From Adineta steineri (taxonomy: Eukaryota): a stretch of 64,000 nucleotides of DNA. The notes beneath the pieces are model-generated. The model was not told where the DNA came from. It searched no databases and worked only from the letters and a program-made list of their open reading frames with translations. The DNA is taken from positions 59,707 to 123,706 of the forward strand of contig CAJNOI010000163.1 in NCBI GenBank assembly GCA_905250115.1, given 5' to 3'. The translations under genes and the position numbers were made by a program. Of this stretch, positions 14,037 through 63,971 are shown one piece after another (the first letter of the stretch is position 1; the number at the start of each line of letters is the position of its first letter).

Positions 14037-14287
14037 TAAATTGTAGACTTTTTTTATTTTCTTTTTCCATAAAAATTATGTTAGAATAAAATAAATTAGG
14101 AACTAATTTTTCACTCTGTTAGTAAAAGTTGCGACTGATTCATAAAATACAACATTCAAAAAACTGTAGGTTACATATAAATTCAAGTAAAAGTTTAATT
14201 TTGTATTTAGACGATAAACTACTTTCAAAATAATTACTATTGCATATGTCTTAAATACAATCGAATTAATATTTTATTGATATATAA

Positions 14288-14545
14288 ATGACTGTCCATT
14301 TCAAAATGCTATTTTTTGAATAATTTTCCATAGGAACAAGATGAAGAATTTCGGTTTTCATCGTTGAAAGGAACTAATCAGTGACACCCTCTTTTTCTAA
14401 ACGCTTTAGATAATAGTTTTAGAAAAATTTTGTTTATATAAATGTTGATGTCTCTATGCAACGATGAAAACCGCAGCTCTTCATCTTGTTTCTATCAAGG
14501 GTTACTCAAAAATTATTTACCCACCTTTTATTTTGAAATGGACAC
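14288..14545. mobile_element. Foldback (long-TIR hairpin) element of about 260 bp.
   Basis: Left arm tgactgtccatttcaaaatgc…ggaacaagatgaagaatttcggttttcatcgttg. Right arm is its near-exact reverse complement (caacgatgaaaaccgcagctcttcatcttgtttc…ttttgaaatggacactg). Arms of about 100 bp at about 85% identity. No ORF. Confidence 0.6.
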
Positions 14546-15292
14546 TGTTTGCTTATATAAATTCATTATATTGTATATCGAATATAATTAAATTGGTAAT
14601 CTGGACAAGGAATATAATTGAGTCAAATCAACATTATAAGTAACTTTTAATAGTATATTCAGTGGTTATAAGATAAATGACAAAAAACGACCTCGTTAAA
14701 CAATAATATCAAAGATCATTTCTCGAGTAATCTTTTTTTTTGTTTTATATAATATATGTTATTTACACTTAACGTCATGAATTTCGAATAAAAAGAAGCA
14801 ACATACTCAGTCAGAGTAAGAAAGTAAATATATAAAGAATGATCAAAGTTCAAAAATTTAAAGATATGGTTTACTAGAATATATCAAGATAAAATTTCCA
14901 GGTATATGATTCATTTAATTATTTTACAGCGAAACTTTGACTTTTAGAAGACGAAAAAAAAGAGTGTCGTTATTTCTAAATCTTTATCATTTTCAAGATA
15001 ATGTATGAAAATGGCAAGAGCAAAGTACAGGAGGAGAAAAGAAATAGTGAATATCTTATCACTAGTAGAATTTGTATCATGATAATGACCATGAAAGTCT
15101 TCTCTTTAAATATTTTATCATCATATAAAAAGTCTCACTATTGTTGATATATATATATACGTTTTTATTTTAATAAATATAATATTTTAAATTATTATTT
15201 TAGATTCATTGAAATGCAAACATCTTTGAAGTATATATATTTATTAACAATTCTTTTTATGATATTTATTAAATTTTAGTTCACGTACTCCA

Positions 15293-41506: not shown

Positions 41507-44500
41507 ATGAAACAATCTACAATATCTAATTTAGTTTTATCACCATTTAATGATATAACAATTGTACTTGAGCTTGGCCGTGAAAAAAGTTTCAAAGCTA
41601 AACAAGAAATAATCAACTATTTACGAGAACAACGAGCACACATTTCATATATTCTTACAGCTAGTGTATGTATAATTTTCTTCTTCTATATCATACATAC
41701 CTTAGTTTTTTCAAGACTGATTATGTTTTGACAACCGAGAATGTTGATAGTTATAAGATACGTCGTGCTAAACAACTCGGCATACCAATAATCAATATTG
41801 AATATGTGTATGAATATCGTCGCTTACCATCTGGTCAATCATTAATTGATATTAACAAATTTATTATCAAATCCGTTGAAGATCAAGAAAATTTTATAAA
41901 AACTGGAACTATTCCTGTTGCAGGTAATAATCAGGTTTCCCTCTTCTAAAAATCATGTCATATATCCTTATTCGATTAGAATCTCGAGTAAATTCGATCA
42001 AAATCAATAAATTCGATCTAAATAAAATCAAGTTATGGAATTCAGACGATGCGAATTTACCTCGTTTCGATGATTCAACACATTGTGAAATTGGCAAATG
42101 GGCTATTTTTAAAGTTTATTTCTATAGCTATTCTTTTCTTATATTTCTATTGTTCATAACAGGAAATCAACGATAATTCAAATGTATTTTTCGTTCTTGA
42201 ACTTCAAATTATTCCTGAACAATACTATGATCAAACAACGAGTGATTATCGACTACGATTTCGATATGAAAAACAACAACAAGATAAAAATATATTAATA
42301 CAATATGCATTTGGAAATGATCCAAATGAACTACAACAATTATTTGCATCATATTATTATCGATTATCATCAATGCCACGTATAATACGAATTCGTGACA
42401 AATTACCTAATCAATTCGGTTCAAAATTATTATTACGTGTAAGTAAATAACATTTAATGAAAAGAATAAAACAATTGTGATCTCAGTCTTTATTTACTCA
42501 TCGTATTGATACACAAATACTTGATGAAAATGTCTGTCAATTAATTGAATCATTATGGTTAGAATCAATTGGTGATCTAAATAAAATTTTGAGTATATCA
42601 CCTGAATCAATCACTCTTAAAACGGTATATTTATATTTATATTTATTTTTCTATATATCGAAATTAGTTTAATATAGATCATTGAAGCAGAAGCTGTATT
42701 GCTGAAACTCAAATCAACTCAAGATCCTGCTGCGGCACTTCATTTCTATTCACTTATACCACATCGACCACAATATACTATTGATCTCATAAAAAATCGT
42801 CGAGTATTGATTGAGAAAATCGATTTATGTCAAGTATATTTCATTCCTTTTTATTCATTTCACTTGATCTTTTATCTATTCAGATGCTTCGAGATATGCT
42901 TACAGTTAATGAATTAACTAATTGGAATGTTAAAGCACCCATTGAAGCTAAATACCGAGCATTGAAATGCTATATAGAAACAATAGCAAGTTCAACATCT
43001 GAATATAAAAATATTGTTAAACTTATTCAATCATCAACAGATAGGTATGAAAATTTGAATTAACTCAACTTCAAGTTTTTTTGTTTACTATAGTGGTGAA
43101 CAAATTATTATTCATAATATATTCAATGTGACTAAACAAACTGATGTACTTAATTTTTGTAATACATTATCAAATCAACGACAACTATTTCATGGATCGA
43201 AATATACGAATTTTCTTGGAATTCTTTCACGGTAAAATAATCAATTCATTCTTTAATATTTCTATTTATGATTATGTATATATATTTAGTGGTTTAGTCA
43301 TGCCTAAAATGGTAATTGAAGAATTAGGTGTTGCACGTACTGATATTGGTTGTCTTGGTTATGGAATTTACTTTTCTGATTCTGTTTCTACCTCTCTTAA
43401 ATATACGTCGCCAAGCACAGTACGACCAGGACGTCGATTATTATGCATTTGTCAAGTAGCATTAGGTGAATCAGCTAATTATTATTCATTTTCATCAACG
43501 CTCAACAAGCCTCCGGATGGTTTCCACAGTACACACGGAGTTAAACGAACAGAAGATAATCATTCAATGTTTACTGTAAGCATAATTATAGTATCGATTC
43601 CTATAATCACAAATATTATTTAGGATGATGAATATGTAATCTATCAATTAGATCAACAACTTTTACACTACATTGTCGAAGTATCATGGATACCGAATGA
43701 TATTGTCAATATTGAATTAGAACGATTACCTATTGTTCATCATCAACAAGATGTATTAAAATTAAGTGAACATGGTAATGATGATTGTGTTTTTATTAGA
43801 TTATATATTTTATATATTCTAGTCGAAGTTCCAATGACAATTGATGATGATGTTATTGAAATTGCGGAACAAGATTATGGTTTGATATGTCCATCATCAG
43901 GCAAACTTGTTCCATTAAAATCCTACCATATTCGTGCTCAAATTGTTGATGTTACAGTTGAAGTAATTCAATCTGTAGTGTAAAAAAAATGTAAATTCAT
44001 CATTTTTCTATTTAATGCAAAGGTTGTTCTCTATCAAGTCTATTATAACATGAGTTCTACACCAATCGAAGCAAAATATGTATTTCCTTTAGATGAAAAT
44101 TCAACTGTATGTGGTTTTGAAGCACATATCAATAATAAAATCATCAAAGGTGTTGTTAAAGAGAAAGAACAAGCTAAACAAGAATATCGAGAAGCAATTG
44201 AAAAAGGTCATGGTGCTTATTTAATGCATCAAGAACAAGCACAAGTATTTAGTGTTGCTGTAGGTAATTTACCAGCAAATACTGAAGTTATTATCAAAAT
44301 TACATATGTTGCTGAATTAGAAATTGAAAATGGTGATATCATTTTTCGTTTTCCATCTAAAATGACTTCATGGCAATCGAAACAAGCAATTGAAACTCGA
44401 GATCAATCATCGCTACGATCAATTGGTATTGTTGATGAAAAAGTTGAATTTAGTTTTAAAGCATCAATACGTATGCCATATAATATAATAAAATTATTTT

Positions 44501-46209
44501 CTCCAACACATCGCCTTCGTCGAAAACTAACTGATTGTATAGCTATGATTGAACTCCTTGATAATGTTCTACTTGATCGAGATTTTATTCTTTCCATAAC
44601 ACTTGATAGTACGAATTTACCTCGAATATCAAATGAAACAAGTGATCTATCAAATAATTTTAATTCTCAAGCGTGTATGCTTACTTTCTATCCACGATTT
44701 GAAATATCAACAAATACAAATGAACAAATTGAACTTATTTTTATTATTGATGTATCAAATTCAATGAATGGAAATTATGTAAAACAAGCGAAACAATTAG
44801 CTCATTTATTTTTAACAAATTTAAAAACTGATGATACAAATACATACTTTAATGTTATTACTTTTGGATCAGGTAATAAAATAGGATTCCCGAGTTTTTC
44901 TTAATTAAATTTAAATTATTTAGATAATGATGAATGTTTTCCAATATCAATGTTAACTACGAAAGAAAATCTTGATAAAGCTAAACATTATGTTCTAGTT
45001 CGTAGTTTTCTTCTTTTCGATCGTGAAATATGTTTGATTATATATATTTTAGCATTCACCTATTCATCGTGGTAATACGGATCTATATGCTGTTCTACAT
45101 CGTTACTCATTATTATCATCAGTATCGGTAAAATTTGGACGTCAATTTATTCTTTTATCTGATGGACATATTCATGATCTTAATTCAATTCTTCTTCTAT
45201 TTAAACATCGATCGACAATGCGTCATGATCGTTTATTTTCATGTTCAATTGGTGATGTTGCTAATAAACATGCTTTAAAACAATTAAGTAATGGAGCAAG
45301 TGGAGGTGGTTTAACAATAATATTTGATTCAAATTATCGATCGAAATGGAAAACAAAAGTATTAAATATTCTTGAATATGTTCGACAACCATGTGTTACA
45401 AGTATATCAATCGATTGGCATGGTCAATTAGATGAAGAACAAAAGTTTAATATGCAAGCACCTAAAATGATTCGATCTTTATTCAATGGTATGCGTTTGA
45501 CTGTCTATCGATTTATACGAAATTGTCATAAGGCAACATTAACAGCTATTATTGATGGACAAGAATTTGTTACTACTGTATTTAGCAGTCCAATGACAAC
45601 AACTAAAGGACGTATTTTACATTGTTTAACTGCTCGAGCACTTATCGATGATTATGATAATGGAATATTGAATATAGACGAGAGTGAAAATGAATTGATT
45701 AAGATTCAATATAAACAAGATCTTATTGATTTAAGTATTAAACATTCTGTTGTTAGTGCATATACAAGTTTTGTTGCCATTGAAGAACGTGATGTTAAAA
45801 CGGATACAAAACCGGTTCAACCAGGTGAGTAGATTCGTCGGTTAATAAGAAACAAGCAAAATTAAAAGTTGTTTTAGGTGTTCATCGTCTTCAAGTTATG
45901 CTCGAAGGTGATGAAGACTTATTACCATATATGGGATGGGATGGTGATGTATCAAATTTAACTTCAATCAAACAGAAATTAATTGATGCACGTATTTCAC
46001 TTGATAGTGCATCGATTCTAAGCAAAAGAGAAATAATTATTGATATTGAAAAACTTTGTCAAACAATTTCTTATCGAACAGGTGGTGATGCTAAATTTAA
46101 TACAATGATGAGTATTATACGTACATATCGTTATTCATTGAATGAATACGATAAAGCAAATGAAATAGAAGATACAATGAAAAGCGGTATATTGAATGAT
46201 TTAAGATAA
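41507..46209 (+). CDS. Vault poly(ADP-ribose) polymerase-like gene (PARP4/vPARP architecture: BRCT, PARP regulatory and catalytic, VIT, vWA), about 14 exons.
   Basis: BRCT DYVLTTENVDSYKIRRAKQLGIPIINIEYVYEY. Catalytic triad intact: QLFHGSKYTNFLGILSRG (H), GYGIYFSDSVSTSLKY (Y), DDEYVIYQLDQQ (E). VIT domain YVFPLDENSTVCGFEAHINNKIIKGVVKEKEQAKQEYREAIEKGHGAYLM. vWA MIDAS IFIIDVSNSMNG. Stop at 46207-46209. Confidence 0.75.
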
Positions 46210-47876: not shown

Positions 47877-50496
47877 TTGAAAAAAGCTAATTACACACAA
47901 GTATCATGTGAGGACGAGGAAGCAGCTTTTTCGGACAGTGAAAATGACGATAACGAATATTATGAACCATCTTCTCCTCGGTTTACACCCATTCGTAGAT
48001 CTTCTTTTACGAGTCATGATTTGGCCACTCCAATGATGGTTGTAACTAATGAAGAAGAACGCTCTCAAAAAACGAATTTACTATTAAGATCACAACCTGA
48101 TTACATGCCAACATCTCCTAGTTATAAAAAAACAGAAGAAAAGAAAGAGAAAAAAAGTAAGATCGTTATAATTAACAAATCCATTTTATATATTCATTAT
48201 AGAATCAGTGCCTGAACCATCACAACCAAAGTTTGATACTACAATACCAATGTTCGTATATTTCAGACTTTCTATCATGTAAACATTGACATTTTCATTT
48301 AGGATGGAAAGTTGTAAGATGCCATCATCGGATCGCAGCGAAAGTCCTATGAATAATAGTAAGATATGAAGCTCATCTTAGCAATGTTTATGAGTTCAGT
48401 ACACTTGAGTTTTGACTGATTTTTCAAAATTAAAATCATTAAGAATTACCAAATTTTCCTCGAGCACGATCTTTAGTCATTGTAGTTCAATATTTCAATT
48501 AATTCGTTATACATATTAAATATGTTCATTTTAGGTATCGAATTAATAACATCAATCGATCCTTTTGACAATGTTGCAGATACTTCTGTTCCTTCTCCTG
48601 CACCATCGTCATCAACAGCAGCATATCGAACAATATCGCTATCAGAAGAAGCAGCATCATCTTCATCTAGGCAGGGTGGCAGCTGTATGGGATCTTCTAT
48701 AGTATCAGAACCGAAGCTAATTATTAGTAAGATAGAATCAAACAACTTTTTCCGACCATTTGAATTAATAAACTATATGATCATAGATACATCTTTTCAA
48801 TCCTACATAAAACCTGGCAAACATGGTCGCGGTCGAGTTATTACATATGATTCACAAGAACCTATTGCTAATATACAAGTTGAAACACTACAAACAAATT
48901 CTACATTTGTACATATTGATCAAGATATATTATATGATGAAAAGTGTGATGATGCAAGAGATATGACGAAAACTTCAATATATAATACACCTATCTGTGA
49001 TCTACTACTTCTCGATGTCTCTCCACTTAGTTTGGGCGTCGAAGATATTTACGGTAATATGCATATACTTATTCCTCGTAATACAACCATTCCAACACGA
49101 ACTCAATTTTATCCAATATTTACAAATGCATATGCTTATCAAACAACAGCTACTATTCGCATATTTGAAGGTGAACATACTCTCACAAAATACAATGTAT
49201 GTAATGTTTTAATTTGATAAACATTTTATTTCTAATTTTCCCTATTGTATAGATGTTCTTGCACGAATTCAGTCTTTCTGATTTAACAAATAATTTTGCT
49301 GCTGAGACACTTGAAATATCTATTCGTATGGATATTGATGCTAATGGTATACTTCATGTCGATGCTGAAGAAGTTTGCTCGGGTGCCAAAACTTCATTGA
49401 CTTTCGGAAATGATAAACATAGTTTGCTAATGATTGAGATATTTGATATTATCATTAAATAGTATTTATATTTATGTAGAATCAACAAAAGATGATATTG
49501 AGCAACATATTTTATTTATAGAACGTGATGCAAATTGTAAAGCTAAATATGGTTAGTTTTCAAAGGATATATTATATTTAATTAGTATTATTTTTTGTAG
49601 TTCGTAACCGTAAACCAGATGATCCTCGATATCCAGTTCGTATTCTGTTATCTTTGTATAGTTTGATTGTTTTTATTTTTTATCTTTTGTTAGTTGAATG
49701 GTCAAATTCAAGGTATAATACACAACTTTTCCAGTGAATTTGGTACTTCATTCGGTAATTTATTCGTAGTTCTTGTTTTGAGAAATATATTGTAATCATA
49801 TATAAATTCAGGTCAAACGATTACTGCTCCACTTCTCAGTAAACTAAAAGATATCCGTTTTACAACAACAATGATTGAAGAGCTAATGAAACTTCAATCT
49901 GAAGTATTATTATTTACAAAATTCCATTAACTATTTATTATATTCCATTTGATTTACATATAGGATGGCTCATTTGCATTAAATATAGATTTAGCTAATG
50001 TACTTTATATCAATCATAAGATCTTTAATGATCTTGAACATTATTTACGTGAACAAGGCTTTAACTCACTCGGTGAGAATGAATAATTTATTGGTAAAGT
50101 TTAGAGACATGTATTTCAATTTTCTTAGCTTTAAGTATACAAAATGAAATTCTTCGTTTGATTGGTACGGGCATCATTCTCATATGGCTTGTTTTTCAAG
50201 CGCAAGTTTTAGAACAAAATACATCACAATTTAAATTTAACTTGGAACAAATCATGGTAAATGGATTCTTTTTAGATCTTCTTCTTTTTACATTTTCATC
50301 TTTCTAGATATCTACGGTTCCTCTGTACAATCATTTACCTTCTAAGCTGATCGAACAAATTAGCAAAGCTATTGAATTCTATCAACAAACAAGTCAACAT
50401 AATAATATATATTGTAGTCAATTGGAGTTGAAGGATCCAACGTGGGACATATTTATTCAACATTTGTTCATTGATATCGATCATGTCAATAATTAA
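47877..50496 (+). CDS. Protein with an Hsp70-type substrate-binding domain but no nucleotide-binding domain. It has an acidic/S-P-rich N-terminus. Multi-exon.
   Basis: LLLLDVSPLSLGVEDIYGNMHILIPRNTTIPTRTQ…TIRIFEGEHTLTKYN (compare Hsp70 LLLLDVAPLSLGIETAGGVMT.LIKRNTTIPTKQTQ…IQVYEGER.MTKDN). The next exon has LEISIRMDIDANGILHVDAEE (compare IEVTFDIDANGILNVSA). Upstream exons encode EDEEAAFSDSENDDNEYYEPSSPRF… and PSPAPSSSTAAY…, with no ATPase motifs. Confidence 0.55.
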
Positions 50497-50778: not shown

Positions 50779-52329
50779 TTAAACTTTAGTTAAAATCCAA
50801 CGTAGGGCATCGTTTTGAACAAAATCGACGATGCCGACGTTGGATGTATCATGAAGAGCAAATACACGCCACCATGCATTTCGAGGTCGGAAGCGGAATA
50901 CATTGTTTCCGTACGAAGAAAGTACCCATTCCTGATTAACATTGCTTGACCAATTGTTTGTTTGAACTCCACCAGTTTTTGCCGTTACATTGTAAGCGGT
51001 AAGAGCACTGGCGTTGGCATTTTGTGACGATAATCGATAAGTACCATTATCAAGCCAACTAATATTCCATTTCTGATGTGCACTATTGCATCCTCCACTT
51101 TCTAATTGAACTCTACTGACGTTGCCATTGACATAAGTACTAAGACATTTATCTGGTTGTGATTTCGGCGCGAGACGATAAATGCCATCGGGAAGAACAC
51201 GAGCTAATTCTTCTTGCATTTGCATATAGGCCGGTTTCAGCTGATAATTCGAGTCACTAGGTAGTGCAGCTCCTTCCGTATTGTTATAAAAAGCAGGAAC
51301 CCAACTGTATCGATCGGTGAAACCCCAAGTGATTAGTGCACGACATCTTGGAGAAAAGTGTAATGCATACTTCAAGAGAGCACGATAGAGACGGCCTTGT
51401 CTCTCTAAATCATTCGGATCTCGAGGATTTCCTGCATTTATCGGAATAGCTACATCTAACTCAGTTACCATGAAATCAAAGTCATTGTCTATTAATCGTT
51501 GAGCATTCTGGTAATGTTGATCACCAGGATTGACTGTTCGTGAGATTCGTATATGCCATTGCATACCAACACCGTGAATGGTAGCACCTTGTGATCTCAC
51601 CCATTTGATTAGTTCAAGTACTCTACTTGATTTTGATCCCATATCTTCATTATTATAATCATTGTAATATAATTGAGCCTGAGGATCAGCTTGATGAGCA
51701 AACATAAAAGCATATTTAACAAAATCTTGGCCCAATTTTCGATACCAAAAGCAATCACGCAAATTAAATGGACGACTATTATTCTTCGAATCCTCGACGG
51801 CTTCATTTACTACATCCCACCAAAGTACTTTGCTTCGGTAGCGACCGACTACTGCATGAATGTAATCACTCAACAATAACTTGACTTTGTCGGATGATAA
51901 TGACGATTCCTGTTTCAATAACCAGTCTGGCGTATATTTGTCTTGAGCCCACACTAGAGTATGTCCTCGTATTTGCATTCCATTCTGTTGAGCCCATCCT
52001 GTGGAATTTGGTGTCGAGCCCAAAAGCCAATCACAGTCGATCCAACTGTAATTGTTTATACCACGCCACAGTTTCATAGGTTTAAAATCGTTCTCCGGCT
52101 CAATCACATGATAGTTTTTTTTTATAAAGGAGTTGTACTGGCCACCGTCGATATCCTTTCGTAAATTGTTAATGCTAGCTGCTGTGCCAAATAAAACGCC
52201 GCGAAGAGCTGAAGATGCTCGAAGTCCAAATGGATCTATTGCCCTAACAGGTGCACTATTCATCAAGTAGTACCATAGTAGTATCGTCGTCCACTTCCTG
52301 ATGAACGATGATGAGAAATGGCACTGCAT
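50779..52329 (-). CDS. Secreted GH10 endo-1,4-beta-xylanase with a C-terminal ricin-B lectin (CBM13) domain, intronless, 516 aa.
   Basis: GH10 catalytic signatures WDVVNEAVED (acid/base Glu) and MVTELDVAIP (nucleophile Glu). HTLVW and ITWGFTD are also present. C-terminal QxW repeats: AHQKWNISWLDNGTYRL, NQEWVLSSYGNNVFRFR, NDALRWIL. N-terminal signal peptide. The ORF is GC-richer than its flanks. Confidence 0.85.
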   Translation of the reverse strand: MQCHFSSSFIRKWTTILLWYYLMNSAPVRAIDPFGLRASSALRGVLFGTAASINNLRKDIDGGQYNSFIKKNYHVIEPENDFKPMKLWRGINNYSWIDCDWLLGSTPNSTGWAQQNGMQIRGHTLVWAQDKYTPDWLLKQESSLSSDKVKLLLSDYIHAVVGRYRSKVLWWDVVNEAVEDSKNNSRPFNLRDCFWYRKLGQDFVKYAFMFAHQADPQAQLYYNDYNNEDMGSKSSRVLELIKWVRSQGATIHGVGMQWHIRISRTVNPGDQHYQNAQRLIDNDFDFMVTELDVAIPINAGNPRDPNDLERQGRLYRALLKYALHFSPRCRALITWGFTDRYSWVPAFYNNTEGAALPSDSNYQLKPAYMQMQEELARVLPDGIYRLAPKSQPDKCLSTYVNGNVSRVQLESGGCNSAHQKWNISWLDNGTYRLSSQNANASALTAYNVTAKTGGVQTNNWSSNVNQEWVLSSYGNNVFRFRPRNAWWRVFALHDTSNVGIVDFVQNDALRWILTKV

Positions 52330-52985: not shown

Positions 52986-54047
52986 TTATGAGAGGTTGGA
53001 CATTTTTCTTTTAGAAATTCCACGTGCATCACATTCGCAGATATTTAAAAGAATATCTATAGCACGAGAGTCAGAATTTGTAATGATTATGTCTTGATAA
53101 GTATCATCATTAAAATCATAAACACCAATATCAGATCCATAACGGACCATCTTATCCGATAATATGTTTTGCGTCTCAAAATAGCCGTCCCCATATCCAA
53201 GTAGCACATCTATACCATATGGCCTACCCGCAGCAGCAATGTCTAAATGATCATCACAATTAAAATCACCTACAACAACTGTAGATGGTATGCGATTAGA
53301 TTTCATGACAAAGTTATTCTTGACGGTGAAAAATCCATTTCTATATTTAGACAACACAGTGACTATGTTTATGCGTTCATCAGAGACAACGACGTCTGGT
53401 TGAGCATCGCCGTCAAAATCACCGCTTACACTATGGTGTGGATCAGAACCCAGGAAAGTATAAGATCGCTTCTGTACTTCAAAAGTTCCATTACCGCACC
53501 CAAGAAATATACCAACATTTACAGCTCTACTATTGGTGACAGCAATATCTACGTGTCCATCGCTATTAAAGTCACTAACAGTCAATGATTCAGGCTCACT
53601 TTGATATCCAGTAGAAAACATCAGCTGCGGTGAAAAAGTGTCATTAGCATTTCCAAAAAACACACAGACATTAGAATTAACAGTATTAATGACAGCAATA
53701 TCTGAATAATTGTCATGATTGAAGTCGACTACAACGATGTCATCGGGTATACATTTCGTTGTCCCTAATATTATATTCCGGACTCTAAAAGTTCCGTTAC
53801 TATTTCCAAATAGAATGTTTACATAGTTTGCATCGCTAATGGTGAATACGAGATCGGCTCGATTATCATTATTGAAATCACCAACTTTCATATGTGTCAT
53901 CCATAAAAAACTTCCTTTTTGAAAAATATTTTCTTTTGTAAAACGTCCGTTAGCATTCCCAGACAGTATGATCACACTTTCGTGATAGTTAGAAAAAACC
54001 ATAATATCAAGCCGACTGTCATCGTTGAAATCAGCAACAGCAAACAT
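52986..54047 (-). CDS. FG-GAP/VCBS-repeat (integrin-alpha-like beta-propeller) protein. The main ORF is intronless and there is a possible short upstream signal-peptide exon.
   Basis: At least 7 repeats of the form DFN(N/H/S)D.hhDIhV…h(F/L)GNGNGTF, for example VGDFNNDNRADLVFTISDANYVNILFGNSNGTF, VVDFNHDNYSDIAVINTVNSNVCVFFGNANDTF, VSDFNSDGHVDIAVTNSRAVNVGIFLGCGNGTF. An aatag acceptor lies just upstream of the first ATG in frame. Confidence 0.7.
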   Translation of the reverse strand: MFAVADFNDDSRLDIMVFSNYHESVIILSGNANGRFTKENIFQKGSFLWMTHMKVGDFNNDNRADLVFTISDANYVNILFGNSNGTFRVRNIILGTTKCIPDDIVVVDFNHDNYSDIAVINTVNSNVCVFFGNANDTFSPQLMFSTGYQSEPESLTVSDFNSDGHVDIAVTNSRAVNVGIFLGCGNGTFEVQKRSYTFLGSDPHHSVSGDFDGDAQPDVVVSDERINIVTVLSKYRNGFFTVKNNFVMKSNRIPSTVVVGDFNCDDHLDIAAAGRPYGIDVLLGYGDGYFETQNILSDKMVRYGSDIGVYDFNDDTYQDIIITNSDSRAIDILLNICECDARGISKRKMSNLS

Positions 54048-55024
54048 TATATCACCGTAAGCAATATCCGATATATTTATTGATATTGATCGAAATTCTA
54101 ACTTGCAAAGTGGAGCTATTAAAAATAAAATAATAAATTACTTTTTCGTATTCTTAGCGTAAAAGTATCTGGAAACATATTTATGCAAGTTGATATTAGA
54201 ACAGCTATTACATTTTTAGTTTTAGCAATCATTGAATAGCAGGAATACTCTACTAACTACGTTTGATTTAATTCATCTGGACATATTTAATCAAGAGAGA
54301 GAAACAGACGATTCTAGTCACTGGAATGGGAACCAAAAGCTATTATTACACTACTAAACTATAGATAAGAACTAAGTTGTAACTTCCATTATTTTGACGG
54401 AGAAGTTTTATTCTACAGCAATAACAAGTTTCAAAACACTTGTTAAAATTTAACTTGTGAACAGGAATAAGTTTCTGGTTATTCAGATTTAAAAAATAGT
54501 TTCATTTAACTATTATAGACATAAAACATATAGTGTTGTCCACACTAGTCAGAAAGTTCGTGACGATTTTATTTTGTACAAACTCTGAAGGAAACCTCGC
54601 CTTGTACTTTCATCATCTAGCTTCGATCACTGTAATATAGAAAAGTAGACAGGATAAAAGATCAATTCGAGTGATGTCACAACGAATGTGAATAGTTTCG
54701 AGTAATTCTATGTGAATCTATAGTCAAAAGATATCCACTGAGTTTTGTAACAATAGCGCTTTTTCTTGTATAACCAGACTATAAGAATTCCAACTATATA
54801 AGAGCTGAAGTTTGTCAGTTTTTCACTTTAATTCACTGACCTGTTGTGCTTGACAATGTTGATGTTGTTGTGTTTATTGTTGAGTTCAAATTAGTATCAA
54901 CTGTTGCACTGGCTGATGAAACTAATAAAAATATATTTGATAAATGCTCTCTTACAAAAATTTATTAGCTTAAATATTAAGAAAATTCAAAGTAAAATTG
55001 CATATAAAAGAACAATTTAGAGGT

Positions 55025-55080
55025 AGATGTGGGTGATTTTTCTTTGATAGATCACATCAACATCCTCACCCACCCTCAAG
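55025..55080. repeat. Telomere-motif micro-hairpin (gatgtgggtgattttt…cctcacccaccctcaag).
   Basis: Shares the CACCCACCCTCAAG end with 27508. Confidence 0.45.
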
Positions 55081-55345
55081 AATAATCAACGACTATCACA
55101 TTTACATTTATTTCGTCTTCCTGAGATTAATTTATTTAAGGTTTTGAAATGAATTCGAAGTGACTTTGCATGGCAAAATAAATTACACGTGTGAGGGAAT
55201 TTTATGCTTACCTTGTCGTGCGACATAAAATGAAAAAATAGTTAGAACTAATATGATCGAAATCAATAGTAGACATCCGAGGAGGATCTTCCAAGAACAT
55301 CGAATTGATGTAGTGACAATTGTTCTAATAAAAAGATATTTTAGA

Positions 55346-57022
55346 TTACAATTTGAATGAATACAACAGAACAAAAACATACCGAGATGTTATAGATGTC
55401 GGTCTCGATTCTGAGTTAGAAGCAGGATTATGTATGGTTGTGCTAAGAGTAACATTTGGTGTTATTTCAAGAGAATTGACAGGATGAATAGTATTCATCC
55501 GTTTTTTTCGATAATTATTTACTCTAAATGCAATTCGAACTATTTTAGGACAAATCCATTTAAGAACAATTGCTAAACCACCTTGAAGACCAAGTAAGAC
55601 AGTTATTATATAGATAAAGCTGCTTTTTTTTTGAATATAAGTATATGAACAATACGATAGAGAACATGCATGAAAATAAGATGAATAATTCATCTTCGTC
55701 TCCCATTTCTCGATGAATAGATTATCGATAAGTACAGCTATTGTAGTGTTTATTGAGAAGCGACTCCTATTGGCCAAGAGAGGATTATGAGATTTCGTAT
55801 AATTAGTATATTTATGAACGAGATCAATACATGAACGATCATAAAAACATTCAAGAGTCGAAGCACGAAATGATTCGCTTGGAGTACAACCAATTTTCAA
55901 ACCTTTAATTGGAGTTATTTCAGATGAATTTGATTTAATAAAATTTGCTTGACTTGTACAATTTAAATACAATCCACAAGAACACCCGTCATAAATTATA
56001 GCTCGAGTAGACGCATAAGTATATTTACGTGAATTCGGAACACCAATATATTCGAAATTTGTTGTATATGTTGACATGTAAGCATTTCCATGATTGATAT
56101 TTCGAATTAAGAAGAGAAGTTGACGGAATGTAGTAGGTACATTTGATTTGGTTTGTTCGATTAACGAATCAAGTTGATCACGAAAATTTGTTTCAGATAG
56201 AAGTTGAGAAGTAACAAATAGTGAGGTACGAAACTGGTTAATAGAATCGTATACTGATGTATTAGAGAGTTGACATAGTCCTTGAAGAGCTTGTAAATGA
56301 GCAGAAAGAAAACGACGATAGTCTCTTGATACATAAATAGACAAGTTAGAGATAAGACCAGATATAAGATCATTTCGGTATTGTTTTGTTGCAAATGGAC
56401 TCATACAAATCTATAAATAACAAAAGAAATAAAAAGAGGGAAAAACTATATTCTCAATTTCTATATAAAGCGTCCACAAAAACATTCTCATAAAATAAAC
56501 CTCCTTTTTTCAGTCAACTATCAACATATTTATTAAAGATATTATTCATTTCGGTTGTCAAGATTTATAATAGAGACGAAGAGAAGAACCGCCACTATAT
56601 CAACTATCGTTTATATTGAGCAGATTAGTATAATCTTAACTAACCGCATGAAATATTGGTTCAATTTCGATAAACTGATCATAAGTCGATGCAATCACTG
56701 AGCATGGACATTTTAATTCATCTCCATATTTTTGTCTTGAATCATTGTAAAACCTAAAAGATGGTTTATTGAAAGTCTTTGTCACTACTTGTGGTTGAAC
56801 TACGGTATAGATGGTGAGGATACTAAGACCACCGATGAATAAAGCAATGTAGAGACGGGTCGCCCATTGACCAAGACGTTTAGCTATTATTCGATCCATA
56901 CCACTACCCATATCACGTAATGAGAATATGTTTAGATCGATCAAAGTGGTACGCAAAAGTTTAATCAGACTTCGCATAGTAATTCTGAATCGATCGCACC
57001 AATTTTGATGAACTATACACAC
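55346..57022 (-). CDS. Member 1 of a lineage-specific two-TM membrane protein family with an N-terminal signal anchor, a conserved C-P-C-S motif, a large Cys-containing ectodomain and a C-terminal TM. Two exons: 57022 to about 56640 and about 56404 to 55346.
   Basis: Exon 1 …LYIALFIGGLSILTIYTVVQPQVVTKTFNKPSFRFYNDSRQKYGDELKCPCSVIASTYDQFIEIEPIFHAV. Exon 2 …GCSCGLYLNCTSQ…LECFYDRSCIDLV…YFHACSLSYCSYTYIQKKSSFIYIITVLLGLQGGLAIVL (C-terminal TM) followed by a basic tail. Paralogs lie at 57445-60984 and 61532-63009. Confidence 0.55.
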
Positions 57023-57097
57023 AAAAACAAATTATACATTTTCTTCGTTGATATAAAGTTTACTATTTCTCAACCGAAAAAGATGGTTGAAAAAAAT

Positions 57098-57160
57098 TTA
57101 CATGTTGGGTGTGGGTGTGGGTGCGTAGTCATTCGATTTCATTGACACCCACATCCGACT
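57098..57160. repeat. Telomere-motif micro-hairpin (catgttgggtgtgggtgtgggtgcg…cattgacacccacatcc).
   Basis: Contains (TGTGGG)2-like units, with an inverted cacccacat end. Confidence 0.5.
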
Positions 57161-57444
57161 CTTATTGACTTTTACTCACCTATAGTCTATTTTTTTTTGA
57201 CTCTCTTCGATTTCCTAGCACTATAAAGATATATCTCTTCTAGCGACAAAAGTCTTGAACTGTTTGAATTTTATTGAACTATCAATTCTTAAATCTTTTT
57301 AATAATCAATAGTAAAGTATCATGTTAGATGATACATCAATTTTTCTTACTTTTCTTCTCATTTTATACAAAATATATCATATAAAACATAAATCGTTGT
57401 TATATAAATATATTTACTCCGTACTTATTTTTATAGATATATTA

Positions 57445-60400
57445 TCAATGATTACCTTGTTGTTGTTCTTGTTGTTCTTGTTTTCTTTTACGTATCATTG
57501 CCCATAATTTGAAGAGAAATTTGATAAAATAAGGAGTGATAAGATGTAGAGAAGCAGCAAGACCACCGATCGTGGACAACAATGTCATAAATATTCCTAC
57601 AATAGTCTTCGTACGAATTTTCTGATGATAAGTACAATACTTTGGTGCACATGATTCGTAAAACTGTTCATACGACGGAGTTGAATTCCATTGTTCCACC
57701 ATCATTTCTTTGATAATAGATGATATTAAAGTAGTTGGAGGAAAACGACTCCGTTCTGAGTCATAAACAAGAGGACGCAAATCAAACATGGGTCCATTTA
57801 GTTTAAGCGTCCAGTCAGAATTTGATGAGTAAGTCAGTAGATTTACAAAACAATCTGAACCTGAATTTGATTCTGAATATAAACATTGCAGAGTTGATCC
57901 TAGAAGAGAATCACTAGCAAGACAGCCTCTAATAAAACCTGGTATTTTATGAATAATATTATCGTTGTAAACGACAGCCGCAGTTTGACAATCCGGATTA
58001 GTGGCACAAACACAGTTGATCGATGTCGAATTGATTTGAATTCCAGGCAAAATAAATGATACCTAGAAAAATAAAGAGAAATCTATGTTCTACTATCAAT
58101 TAATATTAAGTGATTAATACTCCTCTATCTTAGTAATGGAAAGTTTTCCAAGAAAAAAAACTAGTTAGCACATCTTTCATATGAAAAAGACTTGTGAAAA
58201 GTATAGTAGTGATTATATACGATGAATTATTAGTTGATATTCTAATATTATATTATTCCACTCTTTTAGATATAGATAAATGTGTTCTCGAAAAACGGCT
58301 TCATAGACATTGTTTTTACTCTACTCGTTTGTCTCGGTAAGTTAAATATTGAGAGTCAGATCGGATGAACTTATCATTCGACAGCTCATAGGCTAACTTT
58401 TCCTATAGGTTGACTCAATCAATCCATTCAATATTCTGATACCATCACACACTTAAATCGATTCCTATCTCTTATTTGAAGTGATTATGTTGAAAAGAAA
58501 TTAGAGTATATAAGAAAAACATGTAGCAACATATATCATAGAATATTTATATAAATAAATGCGAAAACTTCGGATTTTATCCGAGAGTTATGTGTACAGC
58601 AAAAAGTATATATGGAAATCATAGGAAAATATCAGTATTTTTGCAGTAACTCGAGAATGACTCGTCCAGTTAGGCTCAACTTTAAACTCGACCAAGATTT
58701 TGATGAGACTGAATTGTGTAGAAAATTTCATCAAAATCTGCCTCTCCTTTCTCAAGTTATCGTGTATACGGACGGACGGACACACTGACCGATTCTAGAA
58801 TGTATTCACTTTTTGAGTACACACAAATGAAAATATCTATAGTAATAATGATCATATGACATAATTTTGTTAAGATTATAAAAAAACGTTTATGAATATA
58901 AATACGTTATTTTCATAATCGAATTCAAATGAATAAATGAATATTATCGTAGATTCAATTTGAAGGGACAGGTGGTGGTCATTTAAAATATATAGGATAC
59001 AAATCTGATATGAATAAACTAGGATTTTGTATTTACTATAATGGTATTCATTATGATGCTCTTTTACCTTTTCGAAATAATTCTCAACAATTTGTACCAC
59101 ACTTTGATATAATTAACATGAGTTTATAAAAAGTAACACGATTTAGCTAAAGCAAAGAAGTTTTTATTTATGCGAATGAATAAATCCTCCGGAACTAACT
59201 CCTCGCCGCGTCCTACGGGATAAAAAGAGGGCATCCGCAGGGCCTATGGAGCAGTTCCTTAGTGCGCTCAAGGATGAATTTTTTTAAGCAGATTGATCAA
59301 AATCAATCTATCGTGAACTTCATTTTTCGAGTACATAAAAATAACGTTCACTCTATGGAGAACAAACAAATATCACACAGACACACTATTAAGATATATG
59401 ACTTTTTCACGGTTTTTCGCAAGTGTGGTACTGAAGACATATCGAACGCAGCATATCCACCCCCTATTATTTTACATCATTTTACAGCTCTTGATGAATT
59501 CTATCTACTCTAAAAAAATATTATTGATAATACGAAAAACAAACAAATATCGCACTGACACATTGTCAACATATGTGAGTTTTCTATAATTTACCTACCC
59601 TATCGTACAAAGGAAATCTTGTGTGCAACCTATTTACCCCTATAATTTAGTACCATATTGTAGCTCGTGAAATTCTCTATCGAATGGTATATAATAAGTG
59701 GAATTTTATTTGACTCTGGTAGAAAAATTGCTGACGAAAACGGCATTATAGTATTATTCCCCCCAAAAAAATATAGAAAAATATCAGTATTTTTGCAATA
59801 ACCCAGGAATGGCTCGGCCAATTCTGCTCATCTTCGAACTCGACCGAGATCTTAATGAGACAGTTCTGTGCACAAAATTTCAGCTCAATCGGATGAGCCT
59901 CTCAAACGTTATCGTGTATACGGCCGGACGGACGGACGGCCGGCCACACTGACCGATTCTAGAAGTGTACTCACTTTTTGAGTACACAAAAAGTGCCATA
60001 TGAATATTGTCTTATATGTTCTCTACATAGAATAATGTTTGAATGAATTTATTGTATACGATAATTCATCTGTTAGTTATCAATTGCTCTAGTACGTTTT
60101 AACTGCACACAGTTTTGCTTACTTCTGTTGTTTATGTTTGACGTTTCCAACCTAACTGTTAGTGTCAACAAAAAATAATAGATTTCTAACAAAGAGAGAA
60201 AACTTTTATAACTATATTGCTGAGTTTCTCGTCGAAGTCGATTGGAATTCGATAACATATTACGATTCGTCAAAAGAAATAAAAGATTTTATTATTCTGA
60301 ATATTAACATACCGGTACTAAATGTTGATTGCTCTTTTCATCTCCAATATCGTTCATAATTAGATTAGTACTCGTGACAAAATTATGAAGCATAGCTGGT

Positions 60401-60984
60401 ATCATATAAGGCTGATCGATCTGTATAACAAAGCGCACAAGATCGTTTTGGAGATTAAAGTAAAAAATCGTCGATTCATAAAATTGCTTAAGAGTTTCAT
60501 TTAGTTGCGTATTGAAATCGCTTTCATTGAGTACAGTTGAAGCGATGAAGAATTGCGTCAAAAAACGGTCGACAGAGTCATGAATCGTTTTATTAGCTAG
60601 ATAACAAAGATCGGACAACAATCGAAACTGTGGCAAAGCTTGCTTACGCCAATCATCATACCGGTTGAAACTCGCGCTTTGTTTCCATATTGAAGACCAA
60701 TCATCAGTAATAAAAATACTTGAACATACTTGATGTAAGGTTGGAGATAATAAAACGAATGAACGATACGAGATTGCTTGGGTTGAACAAGGACAAGTGA
60801 GTGTAGTATAATGCAAAATTTGTAAGTCTTTATAAGTATTGAATGATGGATTTGGAATAAGCTTTGTAACTGTTTGAGTACTCAATGCAGTGAAGAGAAG
60901 AAGAATAATAACAGAGACTAATGAGAAAAACAGAAAAATGAACATGTTATTATAAGTATGTCTTCGATTAAAGGATCTTGACAA
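57445..60984 (-). CDS. Member 2 of the CPCS two-TM family. The N-terminal exon 60984 to about 60316 and the C-terminal exon about 58066 to 57445 are separated by a roughly 2.2-kb intron filled with interspersed repeats. It may be a pseudogene if the splice is lost.
   Basis: N-exon MFIFLFFSLVSVIILLLFTALSTQTVTKLIPNPSFNTYKDLQILHYTTLTCPCSTQAISYRSFVLLSPTLHQVCSS… ends VPVC|gtatgtt. C-exon (acceptor tttttctag) …PGIQINSTSINCVCATNPDC…LGSTLQCLYSE…YESCAPKYCTYHQK…IVGIFMTLLSTIGGLAASL, then KRKQEQQEQQQ. Homologous to members 1 and 3 throughout. Confidence 0.45.
58588..58830. repeat. Copy A of a roughly 230-bp interspersed (SINE/MITE-like) repeat ending in a (ACGG)n microsatellite plus the palindrome gtgtactcactttttgagtacac.
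   Basis: Matches 59755-59992 at about 75-80% identity in the same orientation. Shared blocks: aaatatcagtatttttgca, aactcgacc, gttatcgtgtatacggacggacgg, cactgaccgattctagaa. ORFs 58588..58785 and 59630..59821 overlap the repeat and are probably spurious. Confidence 0.6.
59755..59992. repeat. Copy B of the same roughly 230-bp interspersed repeat.
   Basis: See copy A. Ends …cgtgtatacggccggacggacggacggccggccacactgaccgattctagaagtgtactcactttttgagtacac. Confidence 0.6.
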
Positions 60985-61531
60985 AAATTGAACAATAGAA
61001 ATTTATCATTTATTAATGATAAAAGACATTCAATGAGGAATTTGAGAAGTTCATTAACATAGATTTCAATATCTTCTAGAAGAATCAGTAGTATTACACA
61101 TGAAAAATGTATTTAATTCTCGTAATTTCATTGAGAAAATCAAGTATTAAATAAATCAATATTTGCAGTTCAAATGTTCAACTATTGTCAAGAGAAATAG
61201 CCTGTATATGTTTTTTAATATCCAGATATCTGAGAACCAACATTCACTTACTAATTATTTTGGCATCTGAATATAACTTTCTACTGTAGTATATATGTAC
61301 TCAACAAAAAACAAAGTTATGTACAGTAAAATATAACTATACCAGTTAGTAAAATCAAATAGACATATGTGGTAATCTTTTGTTGTTTAATACTGTTTTC
61401 TGTTCGATCATTGGCCTTCTTAAATAAGTTTAATCGTTTCATCCATTGAGTAAATCTGCTCAAACGCATGTTTTGATGCACTATGAATTAAATATAAATT
61501 TTATTTACTATGAAATATTTTTTTATTTATT

Positions 61532-63009
61532 TTAAAACATACCGAAATTGACATTTATGTTTCTTACACGATATCTCACTTTCAATGAGATATTCATTAT
61601 AAACGATGCCATTAAACGAAGTATCATCACGAGACCACCATAGAGACTAATGAAAAGCGTAATGGCATAAATAAATTCAGCTTGATGTGTTTTTGTGTAT
61701 GTGCAGAATGAAGGATTACAATGATCAAAATACTTTGAATAATTTGGTTTTGGTAACCATTCGTCAATCAAGAGATCATTCAAATAATCATTAAAAGAAA
61801 GATTTTGTTGCTTCGAAATTAGAGTAGAGTTTGTCCAATTGATGTGCAACTAAATAAAACGAATATATATGAAAGTTAAGATAGTCTCATACATACATCG
61901 TTCAAAGATGGAAAATAATCGGACAATAATTCCAAACATTCGATTTCATATAAACAATCAAGTGTACTTTGAAGAAGAGCTTCAAGAGGAATACATGCTC
62001 CGAAGAATCCACTAACAATTGTAGAATTTGGTAGATTCTTAAAGTGAAATCTTCCAAAGACACTGTTAGATTCATCTATTACTGGATTAAGAGTAGCCGC
62101 AATAAACAGATTATGTGTGCCACAGGTTAATATGTCTCCAGATGCATGAGTGTACTCCGTTGATAATAGACTAAACATCGTACCCGCGATTAAATGGTGT
62201 ACTAATGTAACTAATAAATTCGTATTAAGAGCTGAAATTAAATAGTTTGCTCGAATAGTTGATCGAAAATAGTCCAAGAACGTAATCATTCGAGCAGATG
62301 CACCTTTCTTGTAAGATTCAATGATAGTATTCACTTCGTGCTCAACTTGTTTGTCAGGAAGAAGATAAATAGTAACAAATTCATTACTACCAACATCATT
62401 TTTAGTATGATTAACTATGTCTTGAGCCAATGAACAAAAACTGGACAAAATTTCAAACTAAATTAAAACAAAATTAATCTTAAAAGTGGATGTAGGAAGG
62501 AAAGGTAAGAATGAGATGAGCGTGTGCCTGAATTCATCTTTTCTGGACACAGTATTCAGCTTTTTAAGATGCAATATTTCCTATTTTTGAATGAGGTAAA
62601 TTCTTTTATTTGTCCTCATATAAATTAATTCTGAAACTAGAATATTAAATCTCTTATGAGAAACTGTACGACAATTAGCTCAATAATTTTTTTTGAGTAG
62701 CTAATTTCAACCTACCTGAGAACTAGCTGTTGTTCGAAAATCCGACACTCCATATCGACTTGCATTTGATAAATATAATGCATGAATCCATTCTTGACTA
62801 ACGAAACGACTTGAACAAACAGGATGAAGTTTGATTGTATTAGAAACAAAATTTTTATAAGTTATGCTGGTTGTTGAACATGGGCATGAAAGAGTTTTGT
62901 TATATTTAGAGTAAAGTTCCTTGAATTTGACAGGTGTAATATTAGACTCAGTAACTGTTGAAGATTCTGTTTGCATCATAGCAGCGTAGAAAATCATATA
63001 TAAAGACAC
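61532..63009 (-). CDS. Member 3 of the CPCS two-TM family, three exons (63009 to about 62710, about 62459 to 61893, about 61849 to 61532).
   Basis: Exon 1 …KTLSCPCSTTSITYKNFVSNTIKLHPVCSSRFVSQEWIHALYL…SSQ|gtaggt. Exon 2 FEILSSFCSLAQDIV…LTCGTHNLFIAATLNP…FGACIPLEALLQSTLDCLYEIECLELL…ND|gtatgt. Exon 3 LHINWTNSTL…YFDHCNPSFCTYTKTHQAEFIYAITLFISLYGGLVMIL (C-terminal TM). Confidence 0.5.
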
Positions 63010-63605
63010 TGAAATAAATAAGAAAAACTATGCAACTACTTACGTTTGATATGGTTACAAATATTCAGGAAAAGATTAATCACATAAAAATGATATTTAA
63101 CGTTTCCTACGACTAAATAGTATTATTTTAGATATATTTGATTCTCAATTTGTTCGTATGATCAACGAAAGTTGTCGACCTTAAGAATCAATAGTGAGAC
63201 AAAAGAAGATTATGTTTTGTATACAAAGTTTCCCAATTACTCTTGATTAAAATAAAATACTAGATCAACTCTTTCCAAGCGTTTACAAGTCGACTATGCA
63301 TTTTATTTAAGGCTAAGAAAAATAATAAATTTCAACTAACATCTAGTTCACTTATATTTGTTAATGTACTCTAGACACTCTTGATAGTCATACTGACTAT
63401 TCTGCTTTAGCTTTCGACTTTAATTATTTCTGATATAAAGCTCGAGCTTTTTTAGTAAAAGGTGTTATCTTCGGGATATATACTATCATTTCCATAGAAG
63501 AACTTCCAGAATAATATTTAGGAAGATGTGAATCTATGTGTGTGCGTTTATAGATCAGATTATTATACTCATCTCCTACCAACCACCACTCTATTTTCAA
63601 CAATA

Positions 63606-63971
63606 TTAGAGTAAATATCCGATTTCTACTTTTCTAATAGTTTTTCTCATAAATTTGTCTAAAATTGGTAACCATGGAAAATAAACTACATTAATATGCT
63701 TCAAACAATTCGAATAAGTTTGTAGAAGAAGAAGAAGTAGAAAATCAGTCACCGATTCAAACATAAATATGCGTTTAAAAATCGAAAAACGTGTATGTGA
63801 CTTACCCACGAGTAGAAGAACGTATAGCCAAGTTTTATATTTTTGGTGTTTAAGAACAATTGCTGGATCTTGCAGTTCATCATCGTCATCATAATCATCT
63901 TCTTCGAGCATAAAGAGATTATAACCGAATACTTTTCGAATAAAGCAATGAAACAAGGTCTTGAGATTCAT
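63606..63971 (-). CDS. Hypothetical ORF (121 aa) with an acidic stretch (EEDDYDDDDE). Unsupported by homology.
   Basis: ORF only. No recognisable motif. It lies next to the CPCS cluster. Confidence 0.2.
   Translation of the reverse strand: MNLKTLFHCFIRKVFGYNLFMLEEDDYDDDDELQDPAIVLKHQKYKTWLYVLLLVGKSHTRFSIFKRIFMFESVTDFLLLLLLQTYSNCLKHINVVYFPWLPILDKFMRKTIRKVEIGYLL

Follow-up and report, generated by a model that had tools for sequence, protein, structure and literature searches.

FG-GAP/VCBS propellers, as found in integrin alpha, ITFG1/TIP, CRTAC1 and bacterial VCBS proteins, share genuine FG-GAP repeats with calcium (Ca)-type loops. An integrin alpha subunit comprises an N-terminal propeller, thigh and calf domains, one C-terminal transmembrane (TM) helix and a GFFKR tail. 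The trimeric two-TM channels (P2X, ASIC/ENaC/DEG/FaNaC and PAC/TMEM206) have cytoplasmic ends, two TM helices and a disulfide-rich glycosylated ectodomain. Three such units form one functional entity, and the second helix carries a small-residue motif. Here we describe a gene of Adineta steineri with likenesses to both groups. It lies on the minus strand of a 64,000-nucleotide (nt) stretch of contig CAJNOI010000163.1, hereafter the window. We consider it probable, taking all parts of the explanation together, that this is a single gene for a surface protein of 1,798 amino acids (aa), with three modules, seven TM helices and an FG-GAP propeller, which would act as a receptor in recognition, adhesion or sensing.

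The gene runs from 63971 to 52986 and has 12 exons. Once joined, these form a single 5,397-nt open reading frame (ORF) of 1,798 codons plus stop. The frame is kept at every exon junction and all 11 introns read GT..AG, in DNA of ~30% GC. The window as a whole is AT-rich (26–36% GC). In order, the introns measure 797, 258, 47, 62, 425, 2250, 443, 234, 58, 290 and 725 nt. We name the repeated units modules C, B and A in the order of reading. In the DNA between them, a canonical donor ends each unit and a canonical acceptor of matching phase opens the next. At the module C to B junction, ...NVNF G/gtatgt (61543) is spliced to tcatag/TGCATCAAAAC (61480). At the B to A junction, ...QQQ G/gtaatc (57456) is spliced to tgtatag/TTCATCAAAAT (57012). 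Both junctions encode '...VHQN...'. The tail of module A is joined to an exon with a further TM helix via a 58-nt intron (CG/gtatgt at 55383, tattag/A at 55324). After this TM7 exon come a Ser/Thr-rich exon and an FG-GAP ORF (54047..52986). That the three units are internal repeats of a single gene, which also includes the propeller, is strongly supported by this reading of the DNA and by related loci.

The same arrangement is found in relatives. In a Joint Genome Institute (JGI) metagenome contig from a bdelloid relative (L003), modules C, B and A are followed by a TM helix and FG-GAP repeats, in the same order. An unrelated AAA/DUF8254 gene lies upstream of the first exon. Two ORFs of L003 are uninterrupted. 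The first (8917–9972) covers the tail of module C, the linker and the N-terminal half of module B. The second (9995–12223) is translated exactly into database protein P0029, which spans the C-terminal half of module B, its TM helix, the linker, all of module A, a TM helix, a loop, TM7, the stalk and the first FG-GAP blade. Single-frame tblastn alignments to L003 cover window residues 343–660 and 702–1323, crossing the exon 4/5, 5/6, 7/8 and 8/9 junctions. In L001, a paralogous A. steineri locus, module order, donor positions, acceptors and phases are as in the window. Residues 1–1784 of our model align with the annotated full-length proteins P0129, P0122, P0137 and P0130 at 36–42% identity. 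For P0129 (A. ricciae, 1,749 aa) identity is 42% over 1,820 columns, and for P0122 (A. steineri, 1,824 aa) it is 40%. The closest protein matches of the region are all bdelloid: A. steineri at 81–87% identity, then A. vaga, A. ricciae and Rotaria.

Alternatively, the three units could be independent tandem paralogous genes, each encoding a two-TM protein and possibly resolved from an operon by a spliced leader, with the FG-GAP ORF as an unrelated fourth neighbour. Spliced-leader trans-splicing occurs in bdelloids, an in-frame Met lies near the start of each module and stop codons occur within 2–11 codons past each inter-module donor. The locus is also often split in public models, such as P0001, P0009 and P0011. 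However, the corresponding junctions of L003 sit inside uninterrupted ORFs, and donor, acceptor and phase are conserved in L001. Conserved peptide reaches upstream of the candidate Met (VHQNWCDRFRIT in the window; RVHLLDRIKIN and VRRKLLDRFKML in homologues). Annotated A. ricciae and A. steineri proteins of 1,750–1,824 aa match our model end to end. Finally, the split models break inside modules, as is typical of prediction errors. Many database models are such fragments or chimaeras (P0001, P0002, P0009 and P0011), and because of them the locus looks like several genes. We regard separate genes as very unlikely.

The modules are clearly related. A preliminary description of this region had proposed three tandem paralogs, each with an N-terminal TM helix, a conserved CPCS motif, a Cys- and sequon-rich ectodomain, a GGL-bearing TM helix and a basic tail. 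All of these features are present on the minus strand in all three units. Homology also holds: by BLASTP, module A is 27% identical to module B (403 columns, expect value (E) 6e-41) and 28% identical to module C (366 columns, E 1e-37). The proposal of separate genes does not stand, in view of the in-frame introns and the L003 ORFs. The interval given for the cluster, 55346–63009, was too narrow, since the first exon lies at 63971–63806 and coding extends down to 52986. The FG-GAP ORF, which had been left unlinked, is spliced in frame to the third unit.

The CPCS motifs start at 62886, 60795 and 56710 on the minus strand and read LSCPCSTTSITYKNF, LTCPCSTQAISYRSF and LKCPCSVIASTYDQF, respectively. 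The pattern L-x-C-P-C-S-x5-Y-x2-F occurs in all three units. Each unit also has a hydrophobic helix before CPCS, STL[DQE]C[LF]Y, C-x-P-x2-C-x-Y, a second helix bearing GGL and a basic tail. A fourth CPCS string, at 21752, is in a frame full of stops and was dismissed as a chance occurrence. We found no further module copies elsewhere in the window. Briefly, a module of ~440 aa consists of a basic cytoplasmic LN[IL]F linker, a TM helix, CPCS, a long-helix stalk, a disulfide-rich beta head and the GGL TM helix. The threefold repeat is also visible in the family consensus. The window model carries what marks this unnamed three-module 'CPCS' family, namely three modules with TM helix, C-x-C, stalk, head and GGL TM helix, joined by LN[IL]F linkers.

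Hydropathy identifies seven TM-grade segments, at aa 49–67, 399–417, 482–500, 844–862, 946–964, 1280–1298 and 1371–1389. With the N-terminus assumed to be inside, the four segments predicted to be extracellular take up 31 of the 33 N-x-S/T sequons. Cysteine numbers are even in all three ectodomains (10, 12 and 12). Lys plus Arg make up 16–21% of the cytoplasmic linkers versus 7–10% of the ectodomains. These properties strongly support a predicted topology in which the 1,798-aa product is a seven-TM surface glycoprotein, with its N-terminus in the cytoplasm and three ectodomains plus the propeller outside.

The propeller itself is readily recognised. The C-terminal 380 aa match PF13517 (FG-GAP_3) in six stretches (E 7.7e-37; 126 bits versus a cut-off of 26.9), and PF01839 (FG-GAP) is also matched (E 1.4e-19; 69.9 bits versus 22.1). 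Seven D-x-N-x-D-x3-D loops start at aa 1451, 1502, 1553, 1604, 1655, 1706 and 1756, a spacing of ~51 aa. Seven Ca-loop motifs at a 51-residue period indicate a seven-bladed propeller. The genome of A. vaga is known to have expanded FG-GAP and other repeat families (PMC3846280). As in other FG-GAP propeller proteins, the propeller is predicted to be extracellular and held on a membrane anchor. In integrin alpha the propeller is N-terminal, whereas here it is C-terminal, after seven TM helices and a mucin-like stalk. The window protein has no thigh, calf or GFFKR sequence, no match to Integrin_alpha2 or any other integrin Pfam family and no TM helix past the propeller. An integrin alpha subunit is therefore excluded by the C-terminal propeller after TM7 and by the lack of an integrin Pfam match. 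We know of no FG-GAP protein with a counterpart to the 1,390 aa that precede the propeller. Coordinates of the gene and its exons are listed in Table 1.

Table 1. Positions, in window coordinates, of the gene, its exons and its longest intron (a slash marks the exon-intron boundary)
Feature	Positions	Strand	Basis
Whole gene	52986..63971	-	Assembled exons; end-to-end match to annotated Adineta proteins (aa 1-1784)
Exon 1: start codon, acidic cytoplasmic N-terminus (NLF...EEDDYDDDDE), first half of TM1	63806..63971	-	Homologous first exon of L003 preceded by unrelated gene
Exon 2: second half of TM1, module C CPCS motif (62886..62875)	62716..63008	-	
Exon 3: module C ectodomain, helical stalk and LQSTLDCLY head	61897..62457	-	
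Exon 4: end of module C ectodomain, TM2 (SLYGGL), basic tail; end ...NVNF G/gtatgt	61543..61849	-	
Exon 5: cytoplasmic linker 1 (VHQN...LNLF...), first half of TM3	61343..61480	-	Same peptide within uninterrupted L003 ORF
Exon 6: second half of TM3, module B CPCS motif (60795..60784), helical stalk	60313..60917	-	
Intron 6: 2,250 nt, phase 0, GT..AG	58063..60312	-	
Exon 7: module B Cys-rich head (CVC...LGSTLQCLY), TM4 (STIGGL), basic/Gln-rich tail; end ...QQQ G/gtaatc	57456..58062	-	
Exon 8: linker 2 (VHQNWCDRF...LNIF...), TM5, module A CPCS motif (56710..56699)	56645..57012	-	Linker continuous with module B in L003 ORF 9995-12223
Exon 9: module A ectodomain, TM6 (GLQGGL), cytoplasmic loop 3	55383..56410	-	
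Exon 10: TM7 (ILLGCLLLISIILVLTIFSFY)	55212..55324	-	
Exon 11: Ser/Thr/Asn-rich extracellular stalk	54841..54921	-	
Exon 12: seven-bladed FG-GAP/VCBS beta-propeller; end ...ICEC...stop	52986..54115	-	Pfam PF13517, PF01839; D-x-N-x-D-x3-D spacing

Two further details concern the introns. The exons after both inter-module introns start near-identically, with T[GT]CATCAAAA[CT] coding for V-H-Q-N (61480–61469 and 57012–57001, minus strand). The introns that split the first TM helix of modules C and B are both of phase 1, and module A has no such intron. The near-identical exon starts and the shared phase suggest that duplication of the module copied its intron positions too. The intron would then have been lost from module A.

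In agreement with the preliminary description, which recognised no named domain family, no Pfam profile scored above threshold in any of the three units. At E<=1 there was only a sub-threshold TM artefact. A match to TMEM128 (PF20479; 15.8 bits versus a cut-off of 23.9) falls on a TM helix and was judged spurious, as was one to TetR_C_39 (PF21626; 26.6 versus 27 bits over 35 aa). The sub-threshold TetR_C_39 match recurs in several family members; no real relationship was found. The sole Protein Data Bank (PDB) sequence match of the family profile, a designed coiled coil (E 8e-4), involves a TM/helical stretch and was rejected.

We modelled module A with AlphaFold2, using an alignment of 84 sequences. 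The mean confidence (predicted local distance difference test, pLDDT) was 85.3. The model has an amphipathic linker helix, TM1, two helices of 30–38 residues that form a stalk with extensions of the TM helices, a Cys-bearing beta-rich head and TM2. A Foldseek comparison, as the preliminary description had proposed, returned no match at E<=1e-3 for this model in either PDB or BFVD. The best BFVD match had E 0.28 and a template modelling score (TM-score) of 0.19. Within the limits of Pfam, PDB and BFVD, the ectodomain has no detectable relative. A three-module homologue (P0314, 1,161 aa) was modelled with pLDDT 85.3 and a predicted TM-score (pTM) of 0.76. The pTM is indirect evidence that the three modules may adopt a fixed, compact mutual arrangement.

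Known families of similar shape were considered individually. P2X receptors (PF00864) gave no Pfam match at E<=1 and no sequence or fold match in PDB; topology alone is alike. For ASIC/ENaC/DEG (PF00858) there was no Pfam match, and Foldseek placed FaNaC1 and ASIC5 at E 2.4–4, with probability <=0.05 and TM-score ~0.1. CD36/SCARB (PF01130) gave neither a Pfam nor a fold match.

Could the module be, or derive from, an envelope or fusion glycoprotein of a virus or retroelement? UniRef lists one homologue, P0002, as 'Envelope protein', and the ectodomain of the module, glycosylated and rich in Cys, contains long helices. Bdelloid long terminal repeat (LTR) elements do carry env-like ORFs: TelKA env is a homologue of the paramyxovirus F protein (pfam00523), and ORF3 of Vesta4 and Vesta6c is 210–230 aa long, that of Vesta4 having two TM regions with cysteines between them (PMC5408684). 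Such proteins resemble the window module in membrane anchor, cysteines, glycosylation and host organisms. However, nothing in BFVD (best E 0.28) or PDB matches the module significantly, no Pfam env family is matched, and there is no furin site with a fusion-peptide pattern after it. The Vesta4 ORF3 has only 220–230 aa. The window module, in contrast, belongs to an intron-rich host gene whose intron positions are conserved. Neither gag nor pol nor an LTR adjoins this gene in the window or in L003, and its neighbours are ordinary host genes. We give an envelope origin almost no credence.

The protein may instead be considered in terms of its likely role. We suggest that the three ectodomains, together with their six TM helices, form a single compact body of pseudo-trimeric shape and that the propeller is an added ligand-binding head. 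The protein would then act in cell-surface recognition, adhesion or sensing, and its family, in the manner of recognition receptors, would have undergone rapid and massive diversification in bdelloids. We favour this role because the architecture is extracellular and rich in Cys and sequons, the propeller is of integrin type, the family is very large and lineage-restricted, and dN/dS (the ratio of nonsynonymous to synonymous divergence) is elevated. A surface receptor or adhesion role, as the preliminary description had suggested, is thus the most reasonable reading.

A different function is conceivable. The three two-TM modules could form a single-chain, pseudo-heterotrimeric ion channel or mechanosensor, a concatenated analogue of P2X, ASIC/ENaC/FaNaC or PAC, in which TM2, TM4 and TM6 (with GGL and neighbouring S/T/Q) line the pore. 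This would fit the presence of exactly three two-TM modules, the conserved GGL helix and the high pTM. Per module, the predicted topology is that of the trimeric channels, with an ectodomain of 315–345 aa. Yet the fold search against PDB provides no significant structural support, and the window module has no sequence or significant structural similarity to these channels. The window protein also differs from them in having three units in one chain, diverged to 27–28% identity, in an ectodomain that opens with a long helical stalk, and in its added seventh TM helix and propeller. We consider a channel unlikely, if worth bearing in mind. It is at best a speculative prospect, of slightly lower standing still, that such a pseudo-heterotrimer with an unseen ectodomain fold works as a sensor or channel gated by ligand or force, in some cases linked to a ligand-binding propeller, with thousands of variants in bdelloids only. 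If so, the variants could, for example, sense pathogens or the environment in an animal that is asexual and tolerates desiccation.

Several observations weigh against a single-gene receptor with a propeller head. In-frame stops follow each inter-module donor by 2–11 codons (61542–61535, 57455–57446 and 55382–55347, minus strand). Intron retention could hence yield products of one, two or three modules that end just past a second TM helix. These stops may be a chance effect of AT-rich introns or may define alternative, shorter isoforms. Splicing in this genome is deduced from the sequence and from relatives. The argument for pseudo-trimeric packing of the modelled homologue is a single pTM value. 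The module matches nothing of known function, so that a receptor role is proposed from architecture and family behaviour. Lastly, most of the propeller exon is gone from L006, a related locus of A. steineri, and the propeller is dispensable in some copies.

The single gene favoured here belongs to a large family. We searched 1.84 billion cluster representatives (50% identity) with a family profile. This matched 3,794 representatives at E<=1e-3, of which 1,474 had E<=1e-30. The best-scoring matches are 1,250–2,244 aa long with three matched stretches, and are typically three-module proteins. Among the ~400 best matches every named member is from Bdelloidea (A. vaga, A. ricciae, A. steineri, Rotaria, Philodina roseola and Didymodactylos carnosus), which bears out the lineage-specific status put forward in the preliminary description. 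Among 152 homologues retrieved with a length of 1,100 aa or more, FG-GAP motifs are absent from 111 (median 1,245 aa) and occur at the C-terminus of the other 41 (median 1,693 aa). Therefore, two architectures exist: three modules, and three modules plus propeller. To our knowledge, the fusion of three two-TM modules has no precedent, whether or not an FG-GAP propeller is attached.

Clear homologues of the same architecture are already public, including A0A814JS41 (A. steineri), A0A815XYW5 (A. ricciae), G3KGU8 (A. vaga) and A0A1Z1R185 (P. roseola). None of the public bdelloid homologues has a functional name, a Pfam domain or a publication on the module, and many of the models are fragments or fusions of neighbouring modules. 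Members are labelled 'uncharacterized' or 'transmembrane', with single cases of 'envelope' (P0002) and 'telomere-associated' (P. roseola P0179). The names 'Envelope protein' and 'Telomere-associated protein' were followed to PMC5408684 and PMC6431247, which do not describe the family. Odd names or the sub-threshold TetR_C_39 match were seen in P0002, P0179, P0287, P0293 and P0160. Neither the module nor an architecture of three such modules was described in any paper that our literature search returned. We conclude that both the domain family and the architecture are new, the public homologues being unnamed predictions only.

If this is correct, bdelloids possess an uncharacterised membrane-protein family that ranks among the larger ones in public data. 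Gene models that are split or mis-fused at module boundaries distort copy counts and the orthology of bdelloid "orphan" genes; the module definition, together with conserved intron phases, would permit re-annotation. A surface family that is large, lineage-restricted and fast-evolving is a natural candidate for recognising pathogens, substrates or cells of the same species. Many animal lineages possess orphan receptor families of large size. Because of this, and because function is unassigned, we rate the importance of the family as moderate. A family with no assigned function is a lead, not a discovery.

We compared the window gene with L006 (CAJNOG010000942.1), to which it is 81–92% identical at the nucleotide level in exons and introns alike. 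Over exons 1–9 there are no stops or frameshifts. The proportions of synonymous (pS) and nonsynonymous (pN) differences are 0.21 and 0.11, and dN/dS is ~0.49. In ectodomain exons 3 and 7, pN/pS is 0.7–0.8. By these measures the gene appears constrained yet fast-evolving. L006 itself is rearranged. Past module A, at 12824–14607, it carries a partial second copy in which exons 1 and 7 and the beginning of exon 8 are joined by no more than the final 28 codons of the FG-GAP exon. The chimaeric database protein P0001 stems from this rearranged or deleted duplicate.

The preliminary description had taken the large intron to suggest ongoing decay or regulatory remodelling. On a view of decay, the locus would be a cluster of degenerating pseudogenes, or a remnant that transposon insertions are breaking up. 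The 2.25-kilobase (kb) intron with its repeats, the relatively high dN/dS (0.49, and up to 0.79 in exon 3) and the rearranged L006, with most of the propeller exon gone, are compatible with this. Conversely, the 1,798-codon frame is intact in AT-rich DNA, all 11 introns are canonical, every conserved Cys, GGL and Ca-loop motif is present, and dN/dS is well below 1. Decay is not supported, and we consider a pseudogene highly improbable.

The large intron reported for the second unit is real, and is intron 6 of the gene. Its position is also an intron in L001, L003 and L006, but is short there. Some 1.76 kb of it (roughly 59989–58227) is missing from L006, and in this stretch lie two copies, 77% identical, of a ~215-nt repeat (58616–58827 and 59768–59992). 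At its end the repeat has (ACGG)n and a TGTACTCA...TGAGTACA hairpin. It recurs in several unrelated, bdelloid-like metagenome contigs of low GC: identity is 84% over 207 nt in L007 (56–258) and 74% over ~160 nt in L008 (7712–7867), L010 (6637–6792) and L012 (3212–3367). Hence, it is a dispersed element. Two repeats resembling short interspersed elements (SINEs) had been reported here. The two copies are confirmed. Scans for tRNA and Rfam similarity found none, so assignment to the SINE class is not established. Nothing in the sequence suggests that the repeat has damaged the gene.

Further coding sequences were noted in the window. The intron-less ORF directly downstream (50779–52329, minus strand; 516 aa) codes for a xylanase of family GH10 (PF00331, E 1.7e-74) that also bears a ricin-B lectin domain. 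This stretch is locally GC-richer (0.356 versus ~0.30), and the ORF looks like a horizontally acquired carbohydrate-active gene. Such genes are typical of bdelloids. On the plus strand, 43144–45832 contains exons for PARP catalytic, VIT and vWA domains, a combination like that of vault-PARP (PARP4). Also on the plus strand, the C-terminal part of a 231-aa ORF (48522–49217) matches HSP70 (PF00012, E 5e-13). This ORF is probably an exon of an HSP70-family gene.

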